NCBI GenBank assembly: GCA_044892525.1 | Contig: CM097886.1 | Coordinates: forward strand, 1,178,001 to 1,242,000 | Direction: 5' to 3' | Source of the DNA: Schmidtea polychroa | Taxonomy: Eukaryota | DNA: 64,000 nt | Part shown: piece after piece, positions 3,277-54,500 of the stretch | How the letters are laid out: the number at the start of each line of letters is the position of its first letter | Numbering within the stretch: position 1 is the first letter of the stretch | Translations under genes and position numbers: made by a program | The notes under the pieces: model-generated | What the model was told of the DNA's origin: nothing | The model's input: only the letters and a program-made list of their open reading frames with translations | Databases searched by the model: none

Positions 3277-5219
3277 TCACCATAGGCTCCAAGGAGTTAA
3301 TTTTTGTAAATATGTAGGAATGCCGCTTACATTATATGGAAGTTCCACTGATATCTGGGAAAGATTGTGCATAGTCATTATCGATGATATAGTTTTTCTA
3401 AAAAAAATATTGGATATAGATGCTGTTTTGATCATATTAGTGATGGGATAGTTAGATTTGGATTTAAACTTTTAGTTGTTACCTAGGAAACGGGTTTGTG
3501 TAGTTGCAAAAATATGATATCAGCATGGTGGGCAAACCTTTCATATATCGGTATGTGCCTTATCCTGTCGACGCTTTCGCAGTAACTACATTCCCCCACA
3601 ACCACACATAAATATTTATTTCATCACTAAACGCCCGATGAGAGTGAAGTTGGTACTTCTATTTGGAGATTGGAAGTCAGTAAAAGATAAGTCCCATCAT
3701 ATCAACTGCTAATGTCCTGACGCTCCTCTGGGTCATGTGCTTACCGTAGAAGGTGCAGCGCTCTATTTCTTCTTGTTCACCCATCATTTTATTACTTATT
3801 TTAACTCATTATTGTTGATCTTCGTCTTAGATTTCTGTGCTCAGAATTTTTACTTAAAACAAATGAGATTTTCAAAGAATTCGAAACACGAGAATTTGCT
3901 ATCGGTGGCCTCTGTCGAAACATCTATGATCATGTTAACGAAATAGATCGAAGTTATCCATATTATGAATTTATTCAGTCAATTGTTCAATTTATTGTTT
4001 GGTCAAATTCATTATCCCATTTGGTTTCAAGACGATAACAGCAAAATATTTTGATTGATTCGCGTTGTTACTAATTTCCCGTCATTACTTTAATAAAACT
4101 AGCTCTAAATAAAACATCCAATTGCAATTACAAGCAAATAAAACGAGCTTCAACCAGGAATGAGCATCTATTTCTCACTAAATTACCTAAGAATTGTTAC
4201 CTTATATAATTATGTATATAAGTTCCTATATTGCTAAATGATATCCAAATCACTATGAACAGCTACAGTATTGTAACAAAGATAGAAATTTGATTAAATT
4301 TCCCAAATTTTACTTAAAATGATACATTTCTACCTAAATTTCATAAATTATCAATGAAATAATGAATGCAGTTAAATGAAATTATGTCGCAAAGCAGTAA
4401 CTTGTGGACTTAGCAACAATTAGAATGTGATTACGCTTAGACACTGGAATTGAAGGAATTAGTAGAAACTTTTGCGAGAAAGGCAAGAAAAATTAAATCT
4501 TAATTTTGTAACGATTATGCAATTGATAATAAATTGTTGTCACTTTAAATTTATTGTTTTCTTATATATATTTATTTTTTTATTAATCTGTGTGAAAGGG
4601 GGCATTTTAATAAGTTTTGCTTAGGGCGATAAATAAGCTGGCGCCGGCCCTGATATTATGTACCGACACATTTCAGTCACGAGCTTAGTTTTTGGGTCTA
4701 GAAATAAGTTCTAGCTCAACACCATTTACTCGCATTTGTTTACTTTCTGTTATTTATCAATGCTATGTTTGAGTTTGTTTCTTGCTCTTGTTCTTATTTT
4801 ATTTTATTTTTGTGTTTTATCTTTTTGGTCTTGTGTAAGTTCTTTTAATGGTGTTTACTTGATGTTTTATGTGTTTTGACCAGGTGCGAGACACGACTTA
4901 AAGCTATGGGTTAGTCAGTGTACCGGATGCAAACATTACGAAATCATGAGATATACCAAACAACCTATGGTCCATTATCCTACTGCAGGCGCGTACGCAG
5001 GATGAATCCATGGGGGGAGGGGGGGGGTTTCAGAAAACATATTTTGTATATGTATTTTTATTTTTTCACGTAATAGCTAGCACTATTTGCCAAATTATAT
5101 TTCACTTTATTTCAATATAAAAACAATTACCTATAGGTATATGAATAATAATTATACATTATAAGAAAAATTAATACAAAATCAATAAAAAATTAAGCAA
5201 GAAAAATTAATAGAAAATT

Positions 5220-7670: not shown

Positions 7671-10600
7671 AATTTTTTTAAAGAATATTAATGACGAATA
7701 ACAAAAAACACGGTTAATCAATGTAATTTTTAAAATTACAAATTTAGTAACTACTTGTCTTGTATTATTTACGTAGAGAATAAATAAAGTATATATATTT
7801 TAACACTTACCTTTTTTTAGTATTATGACCAAAAATGGATTAACTATAACGTAAACGTACTAAAATTTAAAATAATAAAGTTTTTGTGTTTTTATTTATA
7901 CACTACACGTATAAAAATAATAATAACAATCTAATAATAGTAATAGATTGATATCTACCTATCTCTATTGCCTTTGCCAATGATTTTAAACCTGAGATAT
8001 TTTTATTGAAATTTCCTTATTCGACCCCCCCCCCCTTATCATCCCCACACTACCTGGGAACAATAATATGAATAATAATATTAACACTAACAATAATAAT
8101 AATGATTCCTAATAATAACGNNNNNNNNNNNNNNNNNNNNNNNNNNNNNNNNNNNNNNNNNNNNNNNNNNNNNNNNNNNNNNNNNNNNNNNNNNNNNNNN
8201 NNNNNNNNNNNNNNNNNNNNNNNNNNNNNNNNNNNNNNNNNNNNNNNNNNNNNNNNNNNNNNNNNNNNNNNNNNNNTTCGAATTAGTCGAAAATAATTAA
8301 ATTTGTTGAAAAATTTTTTGTGGTTCAACTTAGTTAAAAGTAATTAAATTTGTTTTGTTTTTTTTCCGACTTTTGACTACTTTTACACTAGGAGGTGTCA
8401 CTTTCCCTCTTCTCTCGTGTGTGTGTGTGTGTGATAGGCTAGCTATAGAATGAGATAGACGCGTGACTAGAGCAGTAACGTGTTATCGTTGTCGTAATCG
8501 TTGGCTGCTTCTTCTTATCAATCTCAAAAATTTCAAAACTGTATCTATAATAACATACATCCAACTACTCAGCGTGTTTGACGAAATTAAATTTTACGAT
8601 TAATTTCATTACTAGTTATTTAAAGACGGTAAAATGTTCTAATATCTCTAACAGGCCTGCTGAAACGATAAACAAAATATTTGCTAATTTAATTATCTTG
8701 GCTAGTAATTTCGAATAAAATATCACCACTACATAATTTTGTCATTCGTATTCTGTGAGAATAAATCACAAATTTGTTTCAACAATCCAAATACTCCGGA
8801 ATTTGAAGAAAACCATGAACCCATTGCCGAATTCGCCACCCACAATATGTTGGATATGACCAAACTTGATCAACAAACATATTTCAATTCTTTCAACGGA
8901 AATCCGTTTACAAAAAAAATTTTGATTTTAAATGGGATGATGCATTTTCGAAAGATTCGTTATTTGGAAAAAAGGGATCATTAAAATAGCGTAGGGTGGT
9001 TATGAAAGAATTTGTGTTTAATTTAATATTGCTGCAATGTATTCACAAGTGGCTGAAACAGCAAATTTGTCTGATGATAGTGGCCTAAAAACTGCAGATA
9101 AATATTTTCAAGTTTTATTATAAATAAAGCGAGATTTTAAATTTTATGATGATATACTTGAAATTGATTATTAAAAGGCTAAATTTATTATTTTAAAATA
9201 TAATGTAACAATTTGTCAAAAGTTAATATACTAAAATATTTTATAGACCTTAAATTATTTTGGCTTTTTAATTATAAAAATTAGTCAATTTTAAATTATA
9301 TAATACCAATTGAATTTGTAAATATAATTGAATTTAAAGTGAATTAACAATAATAGATCTTTCCTGATTATAGTCTTAACAATCAATACTTAGTGTTTCT
9401 TTAGTAATATATATTAAGATCATTGGATAAAATATTTACTGCATTATTGTATAGCAAAAATAGTTTATTGCTAAGTTAAAAACTACAAAGGTACAAATAA
9501 TTAATTTTTATTTTTTAACTTTTATGTCGTAAATGGTTTAAACCTGCAGAGATTGGAATTGAAGGCAGGAGTAGAGAATTTGAGGAAGTATACAGGTTAA
9601 AAATCTACCAAATTAAAGCGGTAAGTGAAAGTAAACTTCGTCTTTGAAGGTTCGACTCAAATAATAAACGACTGAAATAAAAGGTTGTGAATATATGTAG
9701 TCGTGTAGATTAATGCATGTCAGAGTTACGTCTTTAACAACTTATTCAATGGGATGAATGAATTTCAGGAAGCTGTTTTATCGATATCTATATTCTGCTT
9801 GATTCTATATTCTACTAATTTGAAGGATCTCTGTTTATTATTATGATGCAATTGTATTAGTATCAACCATAACATTCTGAGATATTAACTTTACATAAAG
9901 ACATAGCAATTTGAATTTTGTATTAAATTGTTATTGTTTTATAAACATTAAATTGCTAAACTTAATTATGAAGTTAGTATTATTTACTAAACATATATTT
10001 ATTGAAATTTATCCATAATTATTAGCTGCTAAATATTTATCTATGTATTTAATAATATTTTAATTAAATCGATTTTAAAATATTTAGATGTTAGAAAATT
10101 TTATATTTATATATAATGCGTCAATATTTATTTTGTATTCCTTATTTAATTTTTGCTGCTCACCAGAACAAAATTTTATTGAAAATAAATTTCTAAATGA
10201 GCTTCTCCTAAGCTTTTTCCATCGCGGTGGCATGATTTTGTGACGGAAAACGAACAAAGCCTGACAAGGGTGATACAGGCAGTTCACACCTCTTACAATC
10301 TATTGTTGTTTTTAAAAAAAATTCTATTAATGTCGAATGAATAGGTATTTTTTATTTAACTATTTTCTAATTAACAACACACTGTGGCTACTGACAACTG
10401 CACATTTTGAATTGTTGTCCAGGGTAGCCAAACTCCGCCAATTGGGAATGTGTTTGTTGTTATTTATTATTGATGATATGTCAATGAAGTTTTATTTAAT
10501 TATTTACCCATTTATTTATTTTTTCAATTTTTCATTTGGGGTTTTACTGATGAGCTACTAATTGATAAATGAGACAACGCGAGTTCGCATTTATTTATTT

Positions 10601-13600
10601 TTACAAGTATTATATATATATATATTTTAATTCATTTTTATCTCCAATTGTTTGGTTTCATGTCGATACCGGATTATTGTTTCTTCCCGCTCATATATTA
10701 CCCCTTAGATGGTTACTGTCTCCAACATCGATATTCGAAATGCTTTTCCTTTTCTTCGCTTGTCGACATTCGAGCATTGGTCCATACTCAAGTATCGGGT
10801 GTATTCTTACCATCGACACATTTGTCATTAATGAAACACGTTCTTGTGAAGTTTCCAAAAATGATTCGGTGGCCCACTTCGCTACATTCTCGTCGATTGT
10901 CAAATCAATTTCTTCTGATTCCATTACATCGTCAACCTGAATTTGTGTCACTTTCTCCGTTATTGTAGTCGATGTTGATGCCATTTCTCGAAGTTTCCTA
11001 TATTCATCCAACGAATATCTCTTTGATGGTTGGTTTTTGGGCATTGGTATATCATCAAACCATTGATTTTCCTCTCTCTGATATACCTTGCGAATGCTTT
11101 TTACGTCCTCGAGAGCCGAATGCACACCAACTTGTTCTCCACATATTTCTCTTACTACGGTTTGTAATTTAAACCAATCCCTTCGTATTGTTACTCCCAT
11201 GTTCTGGAGTACTGGTGCTGCTGCCAAATCCCGAATGCCATACAATTGTTCGATCCATATTCCCAAATATTGGAGTTCTGCATGAAGGTCATGGCCTACT
11301 AAAATCTTACAAACTGTAAGCTGTTGGATGTCTTTTGTTGCCACATATTGATCGTATTGATTTCTGCTGGCCACTTCTGTGATTCCGTGGATTCTCGAAT
11401 TGAAGTGTCGAATTTTTCCTCTTGGAGTCAGGTATATATTCTTTATTATTTTTCTATATTAATTCATGATCGCTATTGCTAAAGGGACCATTTTTCCTTG
11501 TTCAGACGTGCCATATTCTGCATCAATAAATAATATTCTGTTGCGGATTTCTTCCAAATCCATTTCCTTTCTGAGAAGCGACATTTTCTTTTTCAGCATC
11601 TCTTTTGAAATTTTCAGTAATATTGGATCTTCTCTTTCACTTGGCTGCATCTGTGGGATTTCGTTGGCTTCATTTTCGGTTCTGATTTCCACTAACATGG
11701 TTGTTTCTTCATTCGCTGCTCGTAACATTCTCCACATGAAGTCTCCGCAACTTCCACGACGTGAATTTTCTAAGTTCCCACCATACTTTATTGTCATTCG
11801 TCAGTACCTCAACTGTACCCTTGATTACATGCAGGTGATATCTCAACTTCTTCTGCCAATCGCAATTTCGACTTCCTTATTATCGTGAACATTGTAATCT
11901 TCATTTCTCTGTCATCGATTCTCAAATAATTTGGGATTAGGAGATTGTCATTGATCCGGTATACTTGTTGTTCGGCATGATTGTTTATCATTTTGATATA
12001 GCGTCGTAGGTTGACCTTCCCCATTGTATTTGTTCCATTTTTTTTGCTAAAATAGTTATATAATTAAAATTTGAAATTAATTTAATTTTAGAACTAGGGT
12101 TGAGATGGGGTACCCAAAGGATACCGTCCCACCGACTAGTTATATAAATAAATAATAATTACCGTTTAATTAATTGTTGATTTTGTTTTTTTTTCAAAAT
12201 TAATGAATTTAACCCGCCTTTAATACCCTTATGAAAATTTTCTCTCCTCCTTAATACAGCGCTAACCAATCAAATTGATTCTTTCCGTTGACATTGCAAA
12301 GTGCAGATTCACAAGTAAAATAAAAAAAATGTTGATTATATCCATGATGAAATAAAATATTAATAATATCCATAAAATATTTGTACTATATTACTACTAC
12401 TACTTTATCAATTTTGCATGCAAAGTATTCATGTCTTACTACACAAATGTTTCTTCATAAACGATCCAAGGTCTCGCAATCTCGGATCGATTCGTAGAAG
12501 ATTTGGGTATTGATCGAAATTCAATTAGCACAATGATGATGAGAATAGTGAGAGTAGTTACTAATGTTACACACACAATTTCACTGTTAGTTTTTAATGA
12601 CGATATGGTTTCGTTATTAGTCATTGACTCATTGATGCTAGAAAAGATGATTCCGTTGGCAGAGCTTGTGGTTCGGTTTGACTGATTTGATTTCCATATT
12701 GCAAGTTGATAGATGGAATTTGCACAAATTTATTTTCCACTAAAGTTAATTGCCGTAGATTTGAAAATAGAAAACGTCTATAATATTTTATTTTGATGAA
12801 CACTAATTTTGACGTCGATATTGGTGAACGTTGACGAAAAGTTAATATTTGAGATTTATTTTTTTCATTTAATATCGATCCAATTTTTCCATAATATAAA
12901 ATAGCTTTTTGATTGGGTTCCGCTTGTCGGTTAACATTCACTGTTTGATTGAAGATATGAAAGATAACCCGGTTTGTTTCATTAACTAATCGTATCATAT
13001 GTTTACTAGAGTGGATTCTGATCCATTGACTATTAATCTCAGTTCCATTTTCATAATAATGAATCAGAATATTATAGTTATGTAATTTCAAATTTGCATA
13101 CTTTATAAAGGGTTTTCTGCATCTTTATTTGGTTATGATCTCAATGGATAACGTGATTCATCTTCTGCTATTATCTTCTTGCATCTATTTACATGAACGA
13201 TGATTGTCCCAGCCTTTTTATTGTTTTGTGGACGCAATTTTAAATTAGAATCCTTCTGGTTTGTTTATATACACGAGATCTCCAATTTCATGCGCCCATG
13301 CGCGTTTATCATAGCATTCTTTATACGCTTCTTGACTAATTTATAATCTGATACATCCATATATTAAATTTTTAAAAATAAATTTTATCTAAAAATGAAT
13401 ATATGCAAAATAGATCAGCCTCGTAAATCAACTATCCAGCAATCATTGTATATATAACTAGTATAAATAAAATATAATTTTATTAATTGAGATAACTAAA
13501 TTATTATTTCCAATAACATAAAATTAAATACGAAATAGATAAAAATAATTTTACATATTTTACACTGTAAATAATTAATTGTGCAATAAACAATTAAAAA

Positions 13601-14279: not shown

Positions 14280-15600
14280 GGCCAAACGAGAAGAAGCAGA
14301 TGAGCGCCTATCTAAGGACTACTCCTTTGTCCCATTCCGACTCACTTCATCTGACTGCCGGTAGAAGGTTTTACGTCTTATCTTCACACAATGTTCGCCT
14401 ATCGTTCCGTCGTTACTTCCATCTAACTTGTCTCGAGATATATTGGAAGGACCTCAGTTTAACCATTTCGTCACCGCTCGGTATTTTTACCCCACTTCTA
14501 TGACTCAATCAACGAACTAATGAAACAGAACAATTTACTACTACAAAAAGCATTACACCACCACATTTTGACATAAAGAAAAATTAAAAACAACAACAAC
14601 AACAAAACAATCGGATACGTTCAGTCTATTAAGTTCTAGATGAAACACTGAAGAATTAGTAAGGACCATGGTTCAAGTTTGATTCGCGGCCGCTTCAGCG
14701 AACAGAGCTTCGAGATCGAATAGCTCAGCAGCATTCTCTTCCGACGTCATACCAGTGGACGTTACCACTCGAAAACCCGGGGCCATACTGAGAGACTGCA
14801 TCATAACGTTTTTACTGGAAGATTGTGCACTAGCAAGATGTTTTTTTAGCCTGTCCTTCGAGTCGTCGCATTTTCTGCTTGTTCTTGCGCTCGGCGCGAG
14901 ATAATTGCCGATGTTTGGGTTTTTCCGGTACTGCTGCTTTCTCGATTGTAACAGGGGGTGGAGAGATTTTCGACGACACACGGCTAGTGCCTGTAATAAC
15001 CACTTCCGAGGTGGAAGGAGATAAATCGGCCTATACACAGTCGCGACACCCTTTCTTTGCTGGAATATTAAAGTGATCCAACCGATTGTGATAGAGAGGG
15101 AAAAGATTATCGGCTTCTGCAATCGGGATATCCACTATCTTTCTTGTAATTGTGGCCTGTAGATAGACCTTGTGCAAGGCCTCCGACTGCTCTTTGATAA
15201 GGGAGCGTTGGGTCCTACTCTCCTCAATTAGGCTCTTCCTGCAGTTGTCATTGCGGAACAGCTTCTTCTTCACCTCCTGCATTTGGGGTGGAGAAAATCA
15301 TGTTCCCTCGAGGTGGTCAGTCTTCTTCTTGAGAAGCCCTATCTGTGTTTGGAGAGTTCGGATAATACTGTTCTTGTCGGCACAAGAATAGCTAATTAGT
15401 TTATTTTCATTTCTACGTACTCAGTTATTTTTACTTCCCATTTCGATTGGTATTTTACTTTATTCTATTTATTTATCTGTTTTATTTTCGTCTTATTTTA
15501 TTTTACTGACTATTCCACTGCACTGTATCATTTTAATATTAAAAATTAAAAAATAGAAAAAATTAAGAAGCGCTGTGAATATCTCAGTTCTTAGCCCAAC
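14280..15600 (+). mobile_element. LTR-like sequence related to the 44793-46600 solo LTR, containing a decayed antisense ORF (~15390-14673)
   Basis: Shares blocks with the solo LTR: GCAGATGAGCGCCTATCTAAGGACTACTCC vs GCAGGTGAGCTCTATTGCTAAAACTACTCC, GCCGGTAGAAGGTTTTACGTC vs GCCGATAGAAGGTCTTACGTC, and 3' end GTTCTTAGCCCAACA vs GTTCTAGCCCAACA. The 5' TG end and TSD were not identified. Confidence 0.6.
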
Positions 15601-16486
15601 AGTTATATGTACCATATTTTTTATTTTATTAAAATTGATTTAAATCAATCTATTCGTTCTCACTCTTTTATGTTATCTATTTGTGTTCTATTTTAGTTTT
15701 ATTTTGATTCTTTTAATGCAGGTTCCAAAAATATTTATCAGCAAGTCAGGGAATGTTTCCGCGTATTTTTACCTAGCTGATAAGAGAAGGTTACAACCCT
15801 AAAGTCACTGATTACACTGAGTATAGTAATTGGCATTATGTCGACTAGAAGGGCCACTGTACTTTAAGCGTTAGGTGTCATCTTAATCTCTAGTATTACT
15901 TTTATTACGGACATCCCAATCAAAATCTTGGCAATCCGTACTATCATTCTTAGGATCATTTATCATTTTTCCTAATCATTATTTGTAGTATCAGGGACAG
16001 AATAATCGTTACTAGGTATTTTCACTACCATCACTAGTCATCAATATTCGAATCGGCATATGTCTACATAAGATCAATGATGACAGGCTTAACATTTTCA
16101 GGATTTCTTTACGATTAATTCCACCGTTATCAGGACTACCCGGGGTATATTAATAAGATGGGCTCTTAAGAGTTCAACTATGGTTATGGTCAGGCATAAC
16201 TATCGTTAGCAGCACTACCATCATTAATTATCATTCACATCATAACTCGGAGTGCGACCAGTAATATCTATCCATGTGATGACTAAGGTTAACATTAGCT
16301 TTATGGTTATTAAAATCGTTGGTATTATTTTTCTTTGGGTTAATGCCGATGGCACCAGAATGATCACCCTTACACATACCTTCATCATCTAATTGTAAAA
16401 TTTAGCAATTATTATGAGGGTGGGGTATTTTACTTATGTATTTGATGACTCAAAAGAATGTTCAATTGAAACCCTGTTTCTCGTGT

Positions 16487-16680
16487 TCGGGTAAAAACAC
16501 GATTATCCGAGCACAAGAGAAGAAATAAAACGGCTGAAGATGAAGATTGACCAACCGGAGGGGACCTGGTTCACCCCGGACCAGATGAAGGAATCCACTC
16601 AGAAGGTGCTGATATTGGAACACTGCAGAGATAACCTCATCGAAGAGAGTCGGGTCCAACCTACCTTGATACGGGAGCAG
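16487..16680 (+). pseudogene. Inverted paralogue of the 15390-15200 ORF segment (unknown protein)
   Basis: SCSGKNTIIRAQ..EIKRLKMKIDQPEGTWFTPDQMKESTQKVLILEHCRDNLIEESRVQPTLIREQ aligns with SCADKNSIIRTLQTQIGLLKKKTDHLEGT*FSPPQMQEVKKKLFRNDNCRKSLIEESRTQRSLIKEQ on the minus strand. Confidence 0.7.
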
Positions 16681-18624
16681 TTTTGTCCTGTGTACTTTAC
16701 TTCATTTGTTAGTATATTTTTAAAAGACTAATAATTAAATCATCGCCGATTCTACCTTCAGTGTCATCAGTCACGCACCATCTTCCAGGAATCGATTTTA
16801 TCAAAATTTAAAGGACTAGATTTCTCTTCAGAAGTGACAAGCATCGACGTTGAGAAGGTCTGTAGAGGAGTAGTCTTAACACGAAGGCTCACCTGCTCTG
16901 TAGCTTTTGCCGAATTAGTACAATTCCAACATGGTTGCAACCATTGGTGTTTAGTCGTTATGAAGTAGTCATGCGGCGACTTTCTGGAACTTGTACTCAT
17001 CGCAACCTATGACCATACCCTCATTGTCACTTTTCTCATACATTCTCTTTGATTCGCTCGATAGTTAGAGCATTAGCCAAACATTATTATTAATATTAAA
17101 AATATTGTAAGCTTGTACTTCAAATTTTTTAGGCCGATATTTCTTTGTTGAAACATTCTTGTTCATCCTCAGGAAATTCTAGCCGGATGGTGTTCTCTTC
17201 CACATCAGTTCTTTCTGATTTTATTCTAATTTATTACAATTAATTGATTTTAGAAATTGAATAATTCTTTTCCCAAACATGATCGAAAGTGAAATTTATT
17301 TATTGTATATTTATTACTGAATTTTTATCGTTCAATATTAATTGTTTGTTTATCAAATTCAAAATAAATTGAATGCAATATGAAAAATTTATTCAGAAAG
17401 TTTAGAATAGATAAGTTTCATGTTTTCAAAGGTCATTTTTAATGTATCAATACATCCGTAAATGTCTATGAGAGAGTGTGCACGGTCATTGTTGTGCTAT
17501 TATTTATTGATTTTTCAGATAAATTATGGCGGTGGAACCGCAAATACGTAAGGATTTAGTGAGTTGGGGAGGGTGCAGATTCTATGGATGATTAAAGGCA
17601 TATAAAAATATAAAATATTTATTAACTAAAGACCAATGTCTCACAGGTCAAATGTTAAAAACAATCATAGTTCGAATTGTTTGGCCGTCTGAATAATTTC
17701 TCTGTTATAAAAGATGACATACATGAAACATTCAGTTCCAAATCTCTTGTTATTGGGTTAGCCGCGTCTCAACTCAATCATTGATATGTAGCTCAACTTT
17801 AATGTTCATATTTTTGAATAATCATTCATGAAATATATGAAAATAAATCTAATGCAGATATTTCATATGATTCCCCGTAGTTGGAATATTTATCATCCTT
17901 GTGGCCCTCTAAGTCTTTCAGAGCGGTCCTTGGACAATTATACGATATTTTGTAATTTTTAGATTTTTACTTAAATTTATAATTCAAAATAATACAACAA
18001 AATATTATAATTTATTTTACAAATAAAAAAAAAATCATCAGAAAATTAAAAATTTTCATAAAAGAAAAATAAAAATCATTTTTTTCGTTTGACTATTTAA
18101 TTAAAGAAAAATGCTTCTTGTATGATTTCAATAAAAAGATTTAAAATTAAATAAATTAATTTTAGTGCTAAATTTAATGAAATAAAGTAAACAATATCGT
18201 TAGTTTAATATTGCATTATTTATCGATCAATAATTTAATAGGTGAAATTGTCAGCTTTGTATGAAATTTATTAAGTGCTCGTGCTATTATCGAATTGTTT
18301 CACCATATTTCACCATTTTTGAAAAATTCTAATTATTTTTATTTCAACCACAAATAGCAGAAATGTAAAAATCACATTAGTTATTATTAATTTTACCTCT
18401 TACTTTTCTCGGGCACTATTGATTAATCAATTTCTCCATTTTTAAATTAATTTTGAATTTCAATTTGACATTTAAATTTTAATTGTACCGATTTATTTCA
18501 CCTCAACACGCATATATATAGAAACATTTGCCTGAAGAATGTGAGAAAAAATTCATAGATTTGGGCATTAAAGAGTCATTGTTTGAAATATTTTCACTGC
18601 GAATTAAAATTCAAAATTGAAAAT

Positions 18625-19814: not shown

Positions 19815-20797
19815 GGCATTACTTTATATGGAATATGAAGTGATGAGCAATATTGATTGCGATATGATAATAGATAGTTTGCACAAGTTAAAGCAAGAAA
19901 AAAGCATATGGAAATACAGTAATTAACTGTTCCTTTTTATTTTTATTATTTTTTGATAATTTAGTTTATAGAAATAAGATTTAAATGAAATTGTTTTTGT
20001 TTAATTTATTTCATTAAATTTAATTAATATTGTTTTAATAATATTTTTTTAATATTTTAATTAATATTTAATTAATAATTTTTTAAATACATGATAGAAA
20101 TTAATCAAGGATATTTTCAAGAGACATACAACTAATTTGAACAAAGAATTTATTGTAATTAATATTGTTGAAGATCTTGACCATCACCAGAGATATCATT
20201 GTTAATAAAACAATAAAATGATAATTTAAGTCTTGCTGCAAGTAATGTATTTAATAAAAAATTTTAATTCTGATTTTTACAAATTTGTACAAGCAGAGGC
20301 GATTTTAACGGTGTGAGGGCCCGTGGCGGTAAAAAAACGGCCCTCTACCCTATAAATTATATGGATAAATTAAAATTGTAGTGCCTCTGACTAGCACTAT
20401 TATCAATTTAATAATTAAACTAAAAATATATTATTAAATTAATTAAATTAAAATAAAAAATTAAAAATGATAGTTTAAATAATCCTTTACTTCTCACTTT
20501 TTTCAAAAATATTCATCAAATTCAATTTAAAAAATCATTAAATTAAAAATATGTCTAACGAAGTCACTGAAGTCGAACAAGTTGAAGAAACTGAACAAGT
20601 CAAATCAATTGAAGCAGTTACTGAAGAAATTGAAGAATCATCAAATCGAGTCAAAATCAATGGATCAAATATACCAGAAATGCAGGAAACAGAAACCTTC
20701 GTCTGATTAACAATGATATCTCTGGTGATGGTCAAGACCTTCAACAATATTAATTATAATAAATTCTTTGTTCAAATTAGTTGTATGTCCCTAGAAA
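19815..20797 (+). mobile_element. Cluster of hAT relics: dimerisation-tail fragment, left end at 20295, acidic N-terminal ORF 20551-20706
   Basis: ALLYMEYEVMSNIDCDMIIDS..QVKARKK (19815-19915) and a CAGAGGCGATT...GGGCCC end. ~92-bp inverted duplication 20113-20205 / 20706-20797. Confidence 0.5.
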
Positions 20798-21720
20798 AAG
20801 GCAGTGCTGAAAATTCATGAGTATCCGGATATATATAAAATAGATTGCTTGACTATGAATCAGTAAATATATCAAAAACATCGATATTATTTACAAATTT
20901 ATAGTCAAGCTTTTTAACCCTTAAATGCGTGAATTTTTATTTTGTATTGTATTAACACTGACCACGTACTATCACAATTATTATTGACAAAAAAACATAG
21001 ACAAAACATAGATTTTTTTTTTCACTTGAATCTTATTGCCAGACTAAAAAAATATATCGCTGTCATTAATCATAAATAATTATATTTAAATATTTGGTAC
21101 GATGGAAATTCCCATCACAATGCATTTGAAGGTTAATAAATACAATGGAAAAGAAATCAGTGGTGAAATTTGAAAAAAATGTTCTTATATCTTATATTCT
21201 TATAGCTTTTGGGTGGTAGAGGCTTTAATAATAGTTGTGATAACCATATTTACACTAATAATAGCAATAATAATAATAATAATAATGGTAATAATAATGG
21301 TAACAGTTGCAGTAATAGTTGCAGCCAAAATCATAATAATACTGATGATGAAAGCTATGATAATANNNNNNNNNNNNNNNNNNNNNNNNNNNNNNNNNNN
21401 NNNNNNNNNNNNNNNNNNNNNNNNNNNNNNNNNNNNNNNNNNNNNNNNNNNNNNNNNNNNNNNNNNNNNNNNNNNNNNNNNNNNNNNNNNNNNNNNNNNN
21501 NNNNNNNNNNNNNNNNNNNNNNNNNNNNNNNNNNNNNNNNNNNNNNNNNNNNNNNNNNNNNNNNNNNNNNNNNNNNNNNNNNNNNNNNNNNNNNNNNNNN
21601 NNNNNNNNNNNNNNNNNNNNNNNNNTTTATGTTGCGAATAATGAATTTAATAAAAAAATTTCGAATATAAGATAATCCTTGTCAATCTCCTGGAATTTAA
21701 CAAACTTGTTCCTTAACATA

Positions 21721-28388: not shown

Positions 28389-30993
28389 TTATAAATCTTC
28401 TCTTTCATCGCTGTTACTGGCGGCCGAGTTGCGTTTCCGTCCGTCACCAATCGTACCGAACATCGATTCGGGAGGTGGTGCGATTGTCCGATTGGACTGT
28501 CGCAGAAGGACCCCACCAGCCGTGGCAGCGCCGGACGAGACTTGCTGTTGCTGATGGTGGTGATCGTTGCCCCCATTGCTGTTGTCGAGTTTCGATGCCC
28601 AGGACGTGACTGAATCATGATTATTCGAATCACTGGGACAGTTCTTCCAAAGATATTTTACATTGCCAAATCGGGAGTCGTCGGCATAATTCTGATGGTT
28701 GCAACAGCCTCCTCCAGCACCACCATTGCTACTATTATTGTTGGGGTTCGCGCTCGAAAAGAAAACAGGTTTCGACGCGGTCCACGAATCCGAGTTGTTG
28801 CCAACATTCCCATTGACAAGGTGGTAATGATTACTGTTGTTATTATTATTGCAATTAGGCGGCGGGGAATCGGCTGAAATGTGGTCGAGAATGTAGTTGT
28901 TATCCGACAGGAATAATTGCTGATTACTATCGCGGTTGGAAGGCGGAGAATAGACGTTCGGATAATACGAATCGTAAAAGGCGCTGTCATTGCTAGGGTA
29001 ATAATGATTGCTGACCGCCGCCGAGCGATGGTGGGAATCTGTGGCTGACATTGACGGCTGCATGTTTGAGTATTGTGGCTGATAAAATACAGGAGTATCC
29101 TTGAATCCATTGAGTCGGTTGCGAACTTGAGCGTCAGTCGATGACGAGTAACAGTCGGAAATGCTGTTACGGTTCCAACTATCTTCGGGCATCATTTTGA
29201 ATGGGGTAGAATTAAGGGAATGGAAGCCTGACGATGATTGTTGCTTAGTTGAGTCATGGAGAGACGACATAGAGAACTGGGGAGACATTCCGGTGCTAGT
29301 CGGAGGCGGCATGACGATACCGTCGATATTTGTTCCTTCTGTTGAGCTGGTCGACGGGGTGATTTTCGCTTTCGATGACCGCAAAATTCGATCGATGATT
29401 TCTTTGGCATCCCCGTCATCCATCCGAGACACTTCCGGCCAAATCCATTCGGGACTGCAAGTATTCGGGGTACAGTTGCCCTCATCACTCGACGGGGTGG
29501 AATTGCGAGGTTGTTGATCCCAGACTCGCATCACAAGATGAGCAATCAATTGTTTGGCTCGATGGATTTGTAGCCACGCCGTTTCCTCACTGTTTACTGT
29601 TCCATTCTCATAAACTGATATCTCAAAATCTGCTGTGTCTCCAGGAGCACGCAACTCATCCTTCGGGGGACTTTTGATCTCAGTTCCTGTTTCTTTCTGT
29701 ACCGTCGTGATGATTGATCCCTGTGTACCAATAACCTTGCCAACTAGTCGTTGTGGCACTCCGATTGTCGCCGTTGCCAATGGCGTTCGATTGCCGAGCA
29801 TTGGAGGACTACGAGGTCGTTCACCCATCAAACCAGCTATGTTACCGAGTTTATTGCGAGTTATTTGATCAGCTAATTGCTGGATAATCTGGCCGACTTT
29901 AATTGCAGTTTCTGGAACTGCTTCGATCAAGAAAACGTGATCCTCTTTCTCGTTTGGAGTAGCGATTAAAGCGCCTGTTGTTTGACGGATTGTTTTGATT
30001 TTTTTGCCTGAAAATTATAATTATTTGAATATAATAATTAATAAAATGAAAATAGGTAAATATCAACAACTCAAATTGAGTGTTATATAAACCACGGATC
30101 CAAAAAAAGTTTCCAACCAATGAAAATACGATCCAAAATAACGAAGAAAAAAAACGTATATGATAAAACAGAGAATCGAATAAACATAAGAAATACTAAC
30201 CTTCTTTTCCAACGATTTCTGAAACATGCTCCTTGCTGGGAACGCGAACACCTAGCACCAAATATTGCTTTTGGGTTAAATGAGACCCAGAGCTGCCATG
30301 CTTATGCTTGAAAAAGTTAGAAATCCTACTACTATTGCTGTTTTTCATCGTCGCAGAACGATTAAGCACTTCATCTAAATCTTGACCGACAAGAAATCCC
30401 ATTTTCGACGCCATTGATTGATATTCGATTAATTCCACGGGACTTTGTCTGTTCATTGAGTATGAGTTTGCCGTGTTTGAGCTGGGAGAATTTTGAGGGA
30501 ACAGCTGCATTATTGGGGCATTTAATCTCATCATATCCATTTCTCGGCCTAATCGGTTTGAAACTGGAAGGGGTGTATTTGATGTCGACTGTGAAAAATG
30601 ACGTGGAGTTACACGATTATCGTAAGGAGAATTATGTGCACTGTTTGATCGACTTATATTGCAATTAGGTTTGATATTCATGGCTTGAAGTCTCGAAGAT
30701 AAGATATAATCAAAATCTTTGTTGTGGTCCAATTGGGGCATATCATTCGAAATGGAATTACTATTGGAATGGTGGTGTAGGGAATCTACTTCAGAAATAG
30801 AATACATCTTAGAATCTTGATTTAAACTTTGCATAAAATGACTGGTTTGGTTATAAAATTGATTATACATTTCTGGTTTAGGGATATAATTATCGTGATA
30901 TCCGATTTGAGATGAGAATTCATTCATTGGATTATCAGATAAATTAAATCGAAGGCCTTGATTTTGTGTTTGGTTGAACGAAGCACTTAACAT
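28389..30993 (-). CDS. mex-3: MEX-3-like RNA-binding protein, two KH domains, 803 aa, no RING
   Basis: Exons 30993-30201 and 30007-28389 (193-nt GT-AG intron, phase 1). KH1 VRVPSKEHVSEIVGKEGKKIKTIRQTTGALIATP matches the MEX3 signature VPxSEHVAEIVGRQGCKIK. KH2 is IGVPQRLVGKVIGTQGSIITTVQKETGTEIKSP. Confidence 0.9.
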
Positions 30994-32650
30994 CGGATAA
31001 ATACTAAAATTGTCTAAAATTAAATAACAATAATCATCGATTTTTTATAATAAAATGCACATTTAAGTATTTTAAACTTTGATAACAAACAACCAATCAG
31101 AATCAGGGTAGCCATTAGTTAATAATTTTCCATTGGCTTATTGACACAAGGCCAACTGTGAATGAAATTTGTATAACATGAGTCAGGTAGGTTAATCTAT
31201 CACTAGCGTCAAGTAATTCAAAGTGTGTGTACTTTCGCGTGTACAAAATATCCAATAATAAGGATATATGCAACAAAGAAAATAAATAATATCATGAGTA
31301 ATATCTTTGTTTCTAAAATAAAAAATTCCAAAATATCCTTAAATCTTATTAACAAGATAAAAATTAAAATTTTAATCTAAATACTTATCGGCAGAAGCGA
31401 TGAAATTATTAACAAAAATTATTAAAATACAAACTTCCTATATCACTATTAAAATTTATTTCATATATCAATGGCTACCGCACTTTCTTTTATAGAAGTA
31501 TAGTTAGCCTGTTAAAATTAAAGAAATCAGATAATTTCTTAATAGTATAATTAAATAAAAAAGCTATTATATAAATTTATAAAAACGTGTAAAATAAAAT
31601 ATTAATAACTTTAAATGAATAAATGAAAGTATGATTGAAAACGCATTCCAGCACTGAAATTTTAAAACATTTAAACAAATATGAATGTGTTTATTTAAAC
31701 AGCTATGAAATCTTTATATAGCATGATGTTGGTAGGAAAAGCTTTATTACATTAATTTTTATTAAAAATAATATATTTTATGAAAAAGAGTAATATTCAA
31801 TTTAATAAAATAATATTTTGCCTACCTTTTAAAAATAGCTGTCCAAATATAATAAAATATAATGAAATCAAGTAACTAATCTTCAAGTAAGAAAAATTAT
31901 TTTAAGTTAAATTTTAAAATTTATAAACAAAATTAAAAATTAATGCATTAGATGCCGTAATAGATTTTTAACTATGACGCATTCAGCAATTATCCTCATT
32001 GGTTATTTGTTGGAACAAGTTTATTTCATGTGCCAATCGGTTGAAGGTTTATGCCAAATTTTAGTTGTTTTGGAAAATATTATCACTGTACAATGCAATG
32101 CCGTGCGGTAAATTACGAGAAACGTGTAATTTATAACTTGTTTTTGGATCACATCAAATTTCGTTTGAAACTTGAAACAAAATAAATTTTTTTGTTAATT
32201 ATTCAATATTTATTTTTTAATTATGAAACAAGATTTTATTTCATTGTGTTGATGATTATAAATCATTTTATTAGAAAAATAGTACAATTTGTAATTTATA
32301 AAAATTAAATCTTATTTATTTATTCCAAATTGATCTATTCTCTTGTAAACCGATTTATGTTATTCCATTTCCATTTCTTGAACTTGATCTGCCAAATATC
32401 CCCATATGGGGACATCCATTTTTCTTACATATTTAATGCATACTTTTTAGTAATGAAATAGTGAAAACTCGAATTGAAATATAAAAATATTTAATGTCAA
32501 TAAACTACAGAATATACAAGGACATTAGAAATAACGAAAAAATAATGAGAACAAAAATAAAATATTTCGCAGATAAAAATAAAATTGAACACCAACCAAC
32601 ATGTGTATATACATAGAAAAATTAGCACAATTTTAAGATTAGAACTCTCT

Positions 32651-48580: not shown

Positions 48581-51500
48581 ATGAATCAAAATATATGCAA
48601 ATCATCTTTGTGGAAAGGTCAGAATATAGTTCAGTCTTCAGGTAACTTTAACGCCATAATTTAACATATGTGAAATTTGGTGACGCCAACTTGAGATATT
48701 TTTCTACAAAATTTGTTTGAGTATATATATTTTCAAAAAATCTTTAAGCAGTATGCTTAGAGTGTTTATCTATTTGTCTAGGCGAATATAATATTCAGTT
48801 TACTTATAACTTAGGTTTTGCATTAAATTAATTTCCCTAATTTTATTATAACAATAGAAGCTTTATCTCCAAATGGTGTCATCAAATAATAATTTATTGT
48901 GCTTGCATCGATTAGAGGCCTTGTAGTTTTTTGTTGATTTTTAATTGCAGAGCATGCCACAGGGGCATTGGGATCTAATATAAAATCTATTGATAATGAT
49001 TTGGAATTAAAGAATTATATCAATTCATCGAATAAGCAGTTTGATGGGTCGGGCAGTGGAAATGTATTTGACGATAAAATGTATCATGCCAATGATAAAA
49101 TCAATGATCGATCGTTAAATAGCTCATCTTTCAATCAATATAACACTCAGATTACTACAATATCAACAGCCTGCGACTTTAAGGGTTCCGGTGAAGTGGA
49201 TTCTGAAACATTTTTGGAAGGACCATACGCATCAAATGTTAATATTTTTTGTTTGATATTCCTAAATAACAATTTTTATTTTTTACAATAAGAATTGAAT
49301 TGCTAAATTTATAAGGAAACTTAAAATATTTAGATTTACCCACCTGGCTCCATTTTGGCATCATTAGCCCGCGGTTGAAAAATGTAAAATCATATATGTT
49401 CTGATTACAATGAATCCATAAATTTGAAAGACGTCAGGCGATGTTTTGTTAATCCGGAGTTAGTGGTTAAGTTATCACATTTGATGCCATATAATACGGC
49501 ACGTTTCAACTCTTCTTTGCAATAGAGGATTTAGTGCGCATTTTTAATTGATATACGTAAATTAAATGTATTTTTTCTAACTAAACTTGTCCTAAATTTG
49601 CTAGTCAGGAAAAAATAGTTATAAAGTATAAATCTTAATATTCATATTTATTTGTAACATCGTTCTTCAAACCGTATTCCGAGGAAGGTCATCCGTGTAG
49701 CGGGCCTTATCGTTTTTTTGATGAAATAAAGGAAAAGGCTTAAAATAATTACAATATAATAACTTTTTTTCATTTCTATTCAGTAAAAATGTATTTATGA
49801 TTACTCGTTATAATGAATAATCATTCACTGGAGCAGTGAAAATAAAATACAGAAATATACTGGATGTCAGATTTCGATATTATGTAAAAAATGCAAACAT
49901 ATCTCGATCATTGAACTAAATTAATATTAAAATTATCCAATAAAAGAAAATTATAATAAAATGTAAAATAGCTGTCTTATTATTTTGCACATAATACCGA
50001 TTCTTCCAATGGCTTATAGTTTCAATTGTTTAGTTTTAAAGATTCCTTGAGTATTCAAAATTTGAAGATTATTGGTTTAACACGTTCCATTGTACCGTTA
50101 TGTAATACACGGCTGCTGTATGCTTACATATACTGTTTTGAATGCCGTGTACCATGGATAAAGCTAAGTAAATGCTTTGAATTCTAAAATTCAGATTTAA
50201 TTCCAAAGCAGTTTGCTATCCTTAATTGGCTGTGATCATTACCTTCACCTGGCATTCGGGTAAAAGTTTTTCCTTTTTTTGTTCCTACCCCAAACTCTGG
50301 AAATTATTCTGTTGACCCTTGTGGTTATTGTACAAAATAAAATCAATATATTTTATTAATAATTTTAGAATTCTGTGCCACTTCTGGTTGCTGTTGTAGT
50401 TTTTAAGCAAGTTTAAATGATATACTCTCTTGAATAAAAATCTATATTAATAAAACTTATAAAATAAATATTCTGTGTGATATATAATTCAAAGTGATGT
50501 ATAAATGAACGAATGCCATATAATATCGATGTGCTTGTAAAGTCAAAAACCGATAAAATAGAGGTGATGTAATTATAATTTTTTGGCTCTTTTAATCTAA
50601 ATTAATGAGTTGTTTATTAATGATAAAATATATTTTATAGGATTAATCAACAATTTTTACGAGGAATATAACGAGAAATATATTTTTTTTAAAAATATAT
50701 TTCTCGTTATATTCCTCGTAAAAATTGTTGATTAATCCTATAAAATATATTTTGGTGTTAGTTATAATTTAAATTGAGCTCATTCACTACAACCCAATCT
50801 AAATCGAAACATTCTACTCATTCCGTTAATATTGAATCCTCGAATAATCGTGTTTCACTTTCCTTAATTTTTTAACATGATAATTCCATCCAAATCGTTT
50901 AATTTATACCGACCACTGGATCTGCACTCGTGCATTGGTGCAAGGAAAATTACGTAACACATACGTGTAGCGGTGTGCGAGATAAACCGATGTGCGAGAT
51001 AAACCGATGCGCGATTGTGTTTAACACATGCAACAAAAAATTCAAATTAATTAGAATTTAAATTTGGAAAATTCGTTCAAAATTTTTTTCAAAAATTTAA
51101 TTTAATTTATGCAAAAATTATTGAATTTTTTAAAATTTATCTTTTTTAATCAAAATTAATTTTATTAAATTTTATTTAAATAATAATAATCATAAAAATT
51201 GTGATATTTTGTTTTTATTGAACAAAATTTTAAATTTATAAAAATATTTTAATACAAATGGACTTATTTCAGCGATCTTTCATAAATATCTCGAAAAAAA
51301 GCGATCAGTCAATGTCGCATAGTTCTCCGTCATATGCGAATTCAAACGCGCACGATTCTGCATTAATAATGAAACTTTTACAGCAATCTAAAGTAAAATG
51401 GTTCCTTTACAATTTGAGTTATTTGAGTCGAATATTATCCAGCAGTCGAATGATGTGACTGCATCGAATCTTCGAATCACCAGCAATTCCGACATGTCCA

Positions 51501-54500
51501 GCAATAACAGCAATTCCGATGAATATCTATGGTATTATCTCGATCCGAGGCACAATGTCCAGGGTCCATTCCATGATGATCAGATGTTTCAATGGTGGTC
51601 CCAGGGGATTTATTTCCAGAATTCACTTTTAATGCGCAGGAAATGTGACATCGAATTCTCTACGCTTCGTAAGTCATTCGACACGACATTTGGATTTGAA
51701 ATCTTTCCATTGATCTATTTTTTACAGAAGACTACAGCAAACGGTTCAATGGAGTTCCATTCAATCGGAAAGATATCAGAATTCCACCATTAACAGAATC
51801 TTTGTCAATTAACCATGGAAACAATTTCGTTCCGTCAAAGCTGTTCAACAACGGTCAAATGCCAACTCATTCTCAAATGCATCTCAATTCTCAGATTAGT
51901 GAGCCATCTATGCTCTATCAGATGTTTTCCGGCGCTAGTAATTCCCACGTTGATGAGGTTGCCAAAATGTTACACAAGATCAACTTCACGAATCGGGTTC
52001 CGAATCAGCTCGATCAACCGCATATTATTCCTCCGATGCAGAACGGATCCGATCCTTACATGTACAATGATGTTTCTAGCAGTCTTTCATATGTAAAGCC
52101 ACAATTCAACAATCAGTTCCAACACGCTCCAGTTGACTGTAAATCGATACCGATGGAGTCATTTGTCAAGCAAGACCGAGTTCCTGGTCCTCCTTGGTGT
52201 CAGATCCCCCAGGCTCCGTTGATGGACAGCGTTTGGACCACTAAAAACCGGGACAGAATACCGTGAGATATTTATTTAATTAATTATCCATTCATAAATG
52301 ACAACGCAATCTACAATAATCATTGCACCGAGACAACAACATGTCCTCCGTTGCCATAGATATTATCATTCATTCATTATATAATTCCACCAATTTTCTG
52401 CCTTGCCTGCTATTGAATGCACATTTTATATTGATTCAGTGCCGCCGCCGCCGCCGCCGCCAATCACAATGCAGTCTGGTCTCAGTCCAACAGTGATTCG
52501 GTCAACAATGGCCAATCGATTCTCACTAACATTTTTCAAGAAAACACTAAAACGAAGTTATCGAGCGCGATGCACACAGACCCTCGCCAGTGCAATCCTA
52601 TGCAAGACAGCTGGGATAATCTTGATCCAGCAATAATCAAAATGGTACCGTCTGCCAATTCTCAGAATGTACAGAAAGATAACCTATTACCCAGACAGAG
52701 AACACCGCCGCCACCCCCGCCACCACAGTTGTCCTCGTCGATGACAGAAACTGCCACCAATCGATTCCATTCCGACAGCACAAAATCTGTATGGGCCGAA
52801 ATGGTCCGCAAAACGAATTACACCGCCAATTGTCAGAAATATAAATCGGGTTGCAACTCAGAAAATGAACTCTTTACCAATCATTCTATTTCACCCAATC
52901 AGCACAAAACATCTCTCACATCCAATAGCAGCGATGAGGTAATTGATTTTATTTCCTATAAGCCCAATTATCGATTTTATTATTAGCCATAGACTACTGT
53001 AGGAATACAATTGGCCACTGAACCGCTCCCGCTCCCGCTCCCACTCCCTTACACAATATATGGGTGCATGTCTAAGCAGTGTCACTACATTATTAATCGA
53101 TTAATTTATTGATAATACTCACTGATTTGATTTGGTTTTGACATTATTCTAAGGGGGGGGGGTACATGATAATAAATCAATATGGAAAATTGAATTTCTA
53201 CAATCGGCTTTCATTAAATATTTATATTTCATTCAATACTCAATAATTTTTATCGAAAATATTATAAAATTTACCGATAACACAAAATATGTCAAATTTT
53301 TATTTTTGATACTGGTTTTGGCATTAATAAAGTTATCTCTATACTAATTTGCCTAATCCTTAATATATGCTTAAAATGGTTACAAAGAGAAATGGTTCTG
53401 CTAAGCAAACACTAACATGAATAATTATCATAAAAAATGCCAATATTGCCGGAAATTGGTGAAATTATTTGATATATAAATATTACTATCAATTGGCACG
53501 AAATCACTTTTATTACTACCTAAAATGATTTCTGCGTTGATGCAGTTTAGGTACAAGCTATAAATAATCAATCTTGTGCCATTGAGCAATCCTTTGACAA
53601 ATACATCATCTTTCAGCTTCAATAAATGGGCTCATAATGGATGAAGGAATAAAATATGGGAAATCACTGGCATTATTGGATACCATAGAATAAAGTTCCA
53701 CTGTTTTATGGCTTAAATTCATCACATCAATATTTAATAATATTTAAATTGTTTCTGATATGTACAATAAGAAATATTGTTATTTAAAAACTGAAATCAT
53801 TGTGATAACGGAAATGATTATTTAAATTTGAATAAGCAAAAAAAGGTGTATTCAAAAAAGCGTCATATATATTTAGATAAATAAATCGATTCATAAATTA
53901 TTATCATATTAATTCGAGATAAATATAAAATTAATATTAATAAATAAATCGATTCATAAATTATTATCATATTAATTCGAGATAAATATAAAATTAATAT
54001 TAATAAATAAATCGATTCATAAATTATTATCATATTAATTCGAGATAAATATAAAATTAATATTAATAAATAAATCGATTCATAAATTATTATTGCATTA
54101 GGAAATAGATAAAGAAATTATTGTTATATTATTATTATTTGTAATAGAATTTTTGTAATAATAACGTCCTTATGCCACGAGTACAAATTTATTGATACTG
54201 TTAAATCAATGGACATTTCCACACTGTGGTTTTTGATGAAATCCTTTTTGATTTTGTCTCTATTTTTTTACTCCTACAGGAACTATGAAACATTTGACTT
54301 TCGCTGGATAAGAGATCATCATTCTGCCCTCTGTGAATCATACAAGCATTTTCTTGGTTAACTCAACAGACTTTCAATATTGTGCATCTTAACTTCGAAG
54401 TTATTATCTTTAATTTGAATCCAGTCATCTTTGGTTTTGTCTCTGAATAGCGTTTAATATTGATATATCAAATCAACCAATCGAAAATAACACCATAATG

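Follow-up and report, generated by a model that had tools for sequence, protein, structure and literature searches.

Several retrotransposons with long terminal repeats (LTRs) bear on the locus described here. The Burro polyprotein joins Gag, a Ubi/SUMO-like domain, BCL2, an in-frame envelope (env) and pol (PMC6431247), and Burro1 is a target of PIWI in planarians (PMC8532177). The GAG-ENV-POL errantiviruses of Platyhelminthes, such as Smed_errantivirus_1, carry an env of the herpes simplex virus glycoprotein B type (HSV/gB-type), and their movement from cell to cell has been called elusive (Chary and Hayashi, PMC13524379). The bdelloid LTR elements Juno and Vesta, as well as Terminons, encode a DEDDy exonuclease, ORF3, for which 3′ processing or silencing roles were proposed (Rodriguez et al. 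2017, PMC5408684). For arthropods, no clear capture of Jingchuvirales glycoproteins by Gypsy was reported (PMC10084718). Statements about these papers refer to the passages covered here. We analysed a stretch of 64,000 nucleotides from Schmidtea polychroa (contig CM097886.1, positions 1,178,001 to 1,242,000; below, the window), which holds a fragment of a related element with a second membrane protein and a DEDDh exonuclease at its 3′ end. The element family and its env-between-gag-and-pol layout are known; what appears to be new, judging by our literature searches, is the 3′ accessory module, consisting of the membrane protein (TM2) and open reading frame 2 (ORF2).

Our overall reading, which we regard as evenly poised between right and wrong, is that the window carries a dead 3′ fragment of an element of the Burro kind, whose full copies end ORF1 with TM2 and then encode in ORF2 a cupin-DEDDh protein that would serve as a counter-defence accessory.

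The window copy and its full-length relatives

A DNA search of the animal's own genome (781 Mb) with window positions 10500-13600 gave 548 first-look candidates, and most of the 40 that were scored are colinear over ~2.6 kb, at about 86% identity with gaps. The whole 2.7 kb stretch matches other genomic copies at an expect value (E) of 0, so the arrangement exceeds chance. With the nuclease domain alone there were 1,045 candidates (neither figure is a copy number); among the best 150, every one at least 86% identical, 144 hold a stop-free nuclease domain.

The full element, read with its flanks in ten copies, is 16-17.4 kb long (typically ~16.5 kb) and lies between LTRs of ~860-1,000 bp with TG..CA ends. 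Eight LTR pairs are 98.0-99.9% identical, with a 4-bp target-site duplication in 8/8, one of these within a TA run. A polypurine tract (PPT) stands ahead of the 3′ LTR, and the primer-binding site (PBS) matches the 3′ end of the host tRNA-Trp(CCA) from a tandem array. ORF1, 97-100% identical between copies, is open throughout 3,437 codons in one of the first ten copies; a copy from a different lineage (lineages are labelled A to F) has an open ORF1 of 3,419 codons. The Pfam matches of ORF1 run in the order zinc knuckles, ubiquitin-like (weak, E 0.05), Bcl-2 (weak, E 0.012), Monjiviricetes fusion glycoprotein, protease, reverse transcriptase (RT), RNase H (RH) and integrase (IN), with the pol domains RVP, RVT_1, RT_RNaseH, Integrase_H2C2 and rve in the Ty3/gypsy (Metaviridae) order. 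This order places the envelope protein between gag and pol, before the protease. The envelope protein is a class III fusogen by its Pfam match (PF24664, E 9e-87, ORF1 residues 1395-1771), has hydrophobic segments on both sides, 16 cysteines and a ratio of nonsynonymous to synonymous divergence (dN/dS) of 0.04, and its ectodomain finds no meaningful match among PDB sequences. Almost certainly, then, this is a Gypsy LTR element of the Burro or GAG-ENV-POL errantivirus kind, young, present in high copy number and equipped with an envelope. An earlier reading of the window, made from the sequence only, had proposed a Gypsy element with both an envelope glycoprotein and a DEDDh exonuclease, and the two do lie in one unit between the LTRs of full copies. 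The proposed order of pol, env and exonuclease gives way to one with the fusogen between gag and pol, a layout that is in print (PMC6431247, PMC13524379).

With Smed_errantivirus_1-type elements the full copies have in common a Ty3/gypsy pol, an env of the gB type placed between gag and pol, abundant young copies and a length of ~15-17 kb (PMC13524379). The supplement of that paper gives a row for env domains I-II of Smed_errantivirus_1, and 54 of its first 60 residues are identical by eye to our protein P0004. A second membrane protein is present here and absent from the passages covered there; the PBS is clearly of the tRNA-Trp type here, whereas the same passages give no tRNA type for the corresponding two elements (PMC13524379). 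The word 'exonuclease' occurs 0 times in the main text and seven supplements of PMC13524379, and 'DEDD' 0 times in its main text. With Burro and GYPSM1 the shared features are one polyprotein with Gag CCHC knuckles, ubiquitin/SUMO-like and BCL2-like domains, env, protease, RT, RH and IN (PMC6431247). Our ORF1 has ~3,430 amino acids (aa) as against 4,873-5,140 in Burro, and the element ~16.5 kb as against over 30 kb; the MATH, BIR and ankyrin domains of Burro sensu stricto have no Pfam match in our ORF1, nor does the dUTPase-like region named for Burro. The covered passages of PMC6431247 name neither an exonuclease ORF nor a membrane protein after the integrase for Burro, and mention DEDD for Terminons only. 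The element is related to Burro yet more compact and distinct from Burro proper, and groups with the flatworm GAG-ENV-POL errantiviruses on the features tested. In the literature we found no DEDDh or cupin-DEDDh ORF and no PDZ-tailed second membrane protein in such elements; Repbase, Grohme 2018 and PMC6431247 Fig. 2A may name ORF2 or TM2.

The sequence-only reading had suggested looking for nuclease copies between LTRs, 3′ of RT, RNase H and IN, and this linkage was found. The order IN-TM2-ORF2 holds in 10/10 copies chosen by DNA match, and loci chosen by the nuclease alone have RT-RH-IN-TM2 directly upstream in 8/12. The other four comprise one locus between LTRs with pol deleted, one fragmentary locus and two duplicates of lineage F that are unlinked to pol. 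These last (L071 and L072, G000:C1:206.877 Mb and 206.979 Mb) are identical copies, 100 kb apart, of an open ORF2 relative of 591 codons with altered catalytic residues, and the nearest LTR piece is ~6 kb away; lineage F may represent a domesticated copy or simply a stray piece. Searches of this genome with distant ORF2 relatives returned lineage F as the only further type.

Some observations on individual copies may be useful to others. The tandem array that supplies the element's primer tRNA, tRNA-Trp(CCA), starts at 55,022,433 of G000:C4 (L112) and has a 284-bp period; 857 tRNA-Trp pattern matches were counted genome-wide, apparently mostly in this array, which was called as tRNA whereas three dispersed matches were not. 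In L061 and the L079 region (lineages B2 and F flank) there are copies in which an internal deletion has removed pol and fused the beginning of env to TM2. One such copy has LTRs that are 99.9% identical and an open frame of 1,333 codons, which suggests a non-autonomous form that moved recently. Lineage E has two copies arranged head to tail (L081-L083, G000:C3:53.22-53.25 Mb) that share an LTR and are 100% identical over 7.6 kb; the pair may be a tandem insertion or an assembly duplication. In the near-identical copies L028 and L030 the RNase H region is interrupted by an insertion of ~2.5 kb that contains a frame of 483 codons.

The copy in the window is a decayed, truncated, LTR-less 3′ fragment (Table 1), a fossil with no likely function. 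Within 13365-10385 it comprises three intronless, co-oriented minus-strand units, just as had been described from the letters alone, and the first of them is indeed the C-terminus of an integrase. This remnant is in pieces, with deletions of 58, 6 and 68 bp between them, and everything 5′ of 13365 is gone; the corresponding open frame of other copies has the rve and H2C2 Pfam matches. A deletion of ~535 bp at 13120 took the TM2 signal peptide and the first third of the protein. The sequon-rich membrane ORF that had been noticed keeps its hydrophobic segment, with sequons upstream, and is not one ORF, being spread over two frames (13124-12621 and 12729-12439) with a frameshift near 12693. The DEDDh nuclease, described earlier as interrupted by one stop, stands as regards its motifs and core, which is open in one frame from 11800 to 10694 apart from a single premature stop at 11461-11459. 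The whole gene, from 12038 to 10627, has in addition several small frameshifting deletions relative to four other copies (79-91% identity), among them those near 12002, 11841 and 11746 in the N-domain, and there is a frameshift near 10722 in the tail. Its core matches the Pfam RNase_T profile at E 0.0039, below the cut-off. As had been noted, the window copy has neither PPT nor LTR; no PPT is found in the window, and the family LTR is absent from it apart from matches of 55-74 bp near 21.8 kb. The counterpart of the detached piece of 3′ untranslated region (UTR) sits just before the PPT in full copies, and the window match ends before the PPT and LTR. The ~2 kb between the two 3′-UTR pieces (8300-10385) are unmatched in element copies and likely a later insertion.

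Table 1. Parts of the element copy in the window (positions are window positions)
Feature	Position	Strand	Remarks
Detached 3′ UTR piece	7911..8120	-	79-83% identity over ~200 bp, five copies
Start of element 3′ UTR	10385..10626	-	
ORF2 C-terminal tail, largely disordered in model, with basic KRK-type cluster and short terminal beta region	10627..11049	-	
ORF2 DEDDh exonuclease domain	11050..11539	-	D 11524, E 11518, D 11290, H 11122, D 11107
ORF2 N-terminal domain, predicted cupin / double-stranded beta-helix fold	11540..12038	-	
ORF1-ORF2 spacer, element-borne	12039..12438	-	conserved in 6/6 aligned copies
GC-rich hairpin, conserved element feature	12101..12131	-	12 pairs
TM2 remnant (C-terminal ~400 aa of ORF1)	12439..13120	-	93-94% identity to other copies
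C-terminal ETFV of ORF1	12442..12453	-	ET[FW]V at ORF1 end in lineages A, B, C, D, E
TM2 transmembrane segment, hydrophobic stretch shortened by in-frame deletion	12517..12579	-	many sequons upstream
Integrase C-terminus remnant (end of pol part of ORF1)	13121..13365	-	95-97% identity, four other copies

The 400-bp spacer between ORF1 and ORF2 is colinear in all six aligned copies, hairpin included. Within it lie a CCAAT-like box in reverse orientation, an AT-rich box and, at 12049-12048, an acceptor-like AG; such an AG immediately precedes the ORF2 ATG of lineages A1, A2 and E, and is also seen at one ORF of a distant metagenomic element (L138, described below). The hairpin is kept in A1, A2 and E, where 2/12 pairs are changed on both sides, a covariation that is weak because there are only seven rows and several are near-identical. 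Neither hairpin nor spacer has an Rfam match at E<=1, and contigs of presumed RNA runs, which cover parts of A2 and E, reveal neither a splice joint nor a leader where ORF2 begins. The hairpin had earlier been taken for a Helitron-like end. A Helitron 3′ end, with a terminal hairpin and CTRR, is not seen here: there is no insertion boundary, the sequence continues colinearly on both sides of the hairpin in all aligned copies, and the lineage E hairpin is without CTAG. Present in every aligned copy, the hairpin region belongs to the element.

The three units of the window are one insertion, and not two independent ones as the earlier caveat allowed. For a Gypsy remnant to have met a Helitron-borne or retroposed copy of REX4 by two insertions, an idea to which the missing LTR of the window copy and the two unlinked lineage F loci lend some colour, the same junction would have to recur colinearly in many dispersed copies; we give it practically no chance. 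The host gene is no better a source. The REX4-like gene of this genome (L144) is split by introns and is 46-56% identical to cellular REX4-like matches, as against ~27% to the element domain. A protein library search with the nuclease gave 605 proteins at E<=0.001, the best 150 of which were used. A quick tree of 143 rows (13/156 were left out for short coverage) splits 57 element-type from 86 cellular-type rows with a Shimodaira-Hasegawa-like approximate likelihood ratio (SH-aLRT) of 100, where 'cellular' is a label given by motifs and PDB matches, not by protein names; ten element-type proteins that were looked up are nameless. In a careful tree of 40 chosen rows the two groups are separated at 100/99, and a grouping of the element domains with the host REX4 exon is rejected by an approximately unbiased (AU) test (p-AU 3e-9), the host row being one exon of 100 aa. 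A nesting within host REX4, as expected of a processed pseudogene, is thus not seen; judged by these trees, the element nuclease falls outside cellular REX4, and an origin from host REX4 is rejected. The same genome also has an ERI-1-like DEDDh gene (L031, label by eye) in a single open frame of 388 codons.

More distant relatives were met in metagenomes. L138 (1-11518) is a distant Gypsy element, its RT 61% identical. Its integrase is followed by a second aspartic protease, ankyrins and a tail of signal, ectodomain and transmembrane segment ending in GTVV, and its 3′ part has two tandem cupin-DEDDh ORF2 paralogues behind pol, one altered and one intact, plus a ubiquitin-like ORF. The intact paralogue matches RNase_T at 1.5e-11. 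The membrane part of L138 is alike in topology to TM2, with no detectable similarity (probability 0.09). Among the six metagenome loci, L139 is the same element as L138, three are too short for context and one is REX4-like. In a scan of IMG/VR, 0/55 candidate stretches were confirmed.

TM2 and the cupin-DEDDh protein

The membrane unit had been thought to start ~40 nt after the integrase stop. Other copies show it continuing the integrase frame, as the tail of the ORF1 polyprotein. An open copy has a hydrophobic signal at 591-609 and a transmembrane segment at 946-964 of its protein P0003, followed by a short tail, a type I topology, and its 406 aa of TM2 hold 12 sequons and two cysteines. Four lineages (A, B, C and E) have TM2, at 40-50% identity and with an ectodomain dN/dS of 0.20-0.30 between lineages, and the residues that precede the closing ET[FW]V vary. 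Two protein searches returned no relatives at E<=1e-3 among near or longer-length proteins, and there is no match in PDB sequences and none over the Pfam cut-off. On these sequence features TM2 appears to be a second type I membrane protein, distinct from the env fusogen. The sequence-only reading had taken this unit for the env itself, which would give a pol-env-exonuclease element, and its signal peptide, sequons, single transmembrane segment and 3′ position are what one would look for. A true class III fusogen already stands upstream, however, with 16 cysteines and a dN/dS of 0.04, and TM2, with its two cysteines, matches no env in Pfam, PDB or the protein searches; that TM2 is the fusogen is very improbable.

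ORF2 encodes a protein of ~490 aa, separate from ORF1 and 3′ of TM2. A model from a 58-row alignment has a mean predicted local distance difference test score (pLDDT) of 81, with residues 370-465 below 50; a single-sequence fold was unusable (pLDDT 31). The modelled nuclease domain superposes on ISG20 with Z 18.8 and a root-mean-square deviation (rmsd) of 2.2 over 160 aligned residues, and also matches Pan2 and SDN1. Profile matches point the same way (ISG20L2 1e-31, ISG20 1e-21, SDN1 5e-18), and an RNase H-like fold carries ExoI D-x-E, ExoII D and ExoIII H-x4-D, as in DEDDh enzymes. Lineages A1, A2, E, B and C have the full D-E-D-H-D set, as do 41/53 complete rows; catalytic residues are altered in the other 12. 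From the predicted intact active site, we think it probable that the nuclease is active in most lineages.

The N-domain, mostly modelled at a pLDDT over 90, has Foldseek matches to cupins and to the vaccinia C16 N-terminus (E 4e-5 to 1e-4) and superposes on ALKBH6 with Z 9.0 and an rmsd of 3.7 over 135; the best Atlas score was an uninformative 0.75. No H-x-D/E...H set, as in the His/Asp/His metal triad of cupins and 2OG-Fe(II) dioxygenases, is present in its alignment, in which H84 is found in 44/50 rows, H82 in 5/50 and an acidic residue at 132 in 50/54. The domain occurs in 46/156 rows. With the cellular enzymes ISG20, ISG20L2, REX4 and SDN1, ORF2 shares the fold and the catalytic set; unlike them, the element-type domains lie on their own side of the tree and most have the cupin-like N-domain. 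The elements Juno and Vesta likewise have a separate 3′-5′ exonuclease ORF behind the pol of a Gypsy-like element, but theirs is RNase D-like and DEDDy and replaces env, whereas ORF2 is an ISG20/REX4-like DEDDh domain fused to a cupin fold and occurs alongside both a fusogen and TM2 (PMC5408684).

Possible roles of ORF2

Between A1 and A2, dN/dS is 0.08 for the nuclease, 0.11 for the N-domain and 0.15 for the tail, and the nuclease is under purifying selection; selection acts on TM2 as well. In one A1/A2 pair ORF1 is 97-100% and ORF2 81-82% identical, and in one B/C pair the figures are 95-99% and 66-80%; as a module, ORF2 has been exchanged between pol backbones that are almost identical. We rank counter-defence first among the roles of ORF2, because ORF2 is a separate gene whose alleles are exchanged, changes faster than pol and has dead paralogues, traits that genes of this kind tend to have. 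Module swapping, dead paralogues and faster-than-pol evolution favour an anti-silencing role only mildly, and that counter-defence is the main role is a tentative proposal, a little short of an even chance.

We envisage the following course. The element protease, together with signal peptidase, would process ORF1 to release Gag, pieces of ubiquitin-like and Bcl-2-like type, the class III fusogen, Pol and also TM2. The last of these would go to the cell surface, where its tail may hold it at PDZ-scaffolded junctions, and could aid the budding of particles or their passage between cells. ORF2 may be made from a sub-genomic RNA of its own and enter the nucleus by its basic cluster, which is retained across five lineages (A1, A2, E, B and C). 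There the cupin domain would bind RNA or ribonucleoprotein and the nuclease trim 3′ ends, and this trimming might lower silencing guided by small RNAs or remove by-products that trigger it.

A number of points weigh against this proposal. A replication helper, or neutral template switching close to the 3′ end, would also account for module exchange and rapid divergence. Only the A1/A2 ratio is clean, because dS is saturated in most lineage pairs. The acceptor-like AG before ORF2 is lacking in lineages B and C (2/5 lineages). DEDDh enzymes act on RNA or single-stranded DNA. ET[FW]V resembles a class I PDZ-binding motif, and the KRK-type cluster is a possible nuclear signal; both readings are resemblances of motif. 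For TM2, a lead from Atlas to an FN3 fold (0.85) is not above shuffles, with 3/30 as high and 4/197 higher.

In place of counter-defence, ORF2 could be a replication helper that trims the 3′ end of the element RNA, primer or cDNA, or mismatched ends, for clean copying and integration of a genome of 16 kb or more. It occurs in every full-length lineage examined, its selection is strongly purifying, its closest solved relatives process RNA 3′ ends, and the bdelloid DEDDy ORF3 has been suggested to act in the same way (PMC5408684). Such a helper would sit oddly as a separate ORF outside Pol, exchanged between near-identical pol backbones and without the full catalytic set in 12/53 relatives, and we hold this role to be possible, though on the unlikely side.

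The Bcl-2-like and ubiquitin-like domains aboard the element, together with the allelic diversity of ORF2, raise another option, namely that ORF2 manipulates the host or serves competition in ways unrelated to silencing, degrading host or rival-element RNA while the Bcl-2-like and ubiquitin-like cargo keeps the producer cell alive. ISG20-type folds are antiviral RNases. Host DEDDh enzymes also restrict L1 (PMC10123124). An RNase hostile to retroelement RNA would, however, have to spare its own, and we consider this option improbable.

Counter-defence also has a stronger form, which we find doubtful. Here planarian-type enveloped Gypsy elements would be analogues of complex retroviruses, their surface bearing two glycoproteins, the class III fusogen and a PDZ-binding protein targeted to junctions, and the cupin-DEDDh proteins would be a family of their own, of dozens of sequence clusters, whose exchangeable anti-silencing nucleases trim host small RNAs or their precursors and whose catalytically dead members act as decoys. 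If true, an animal transposon would encode an enzyme that suppresses PIWI silencing. The question bears on how LTR elements reach hundreds of young copies despite strong stem-cell PIWI silencing. ORF2, with its intact-looking site, natural dead variants and exchangeable alleles, is directly testable in an animal where RNA interference is routine, and TM2 with its invariant C-terminal motif offers a handle on the cell-to-cell movement of gB-type errantiviruses.

Other features of the window

A GC-richer, decayed, coding-like stretch on the minus strand (14673-17200) is unrelated to the element; part of it matches, at 67%, a repeat that flanks another element copy. Inverted repeats of 98 nt, 94% complementary and 489 nt apart (20114-20798), resemble a miniature inverted-repeat transposable element (MITE). 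A host gene with KH-like RNA-binding repeats lies on the minus strand at 28389-31044, and by eye we take it to be MEX-3-like. On the plus strand there are exons of a GYF-domain-like protein (51392-52986) and of an Ig-domain adhesion protein (61529-61936) that is neuroglian/L1-like by eye, with an FN3 exon just beyond the window end.

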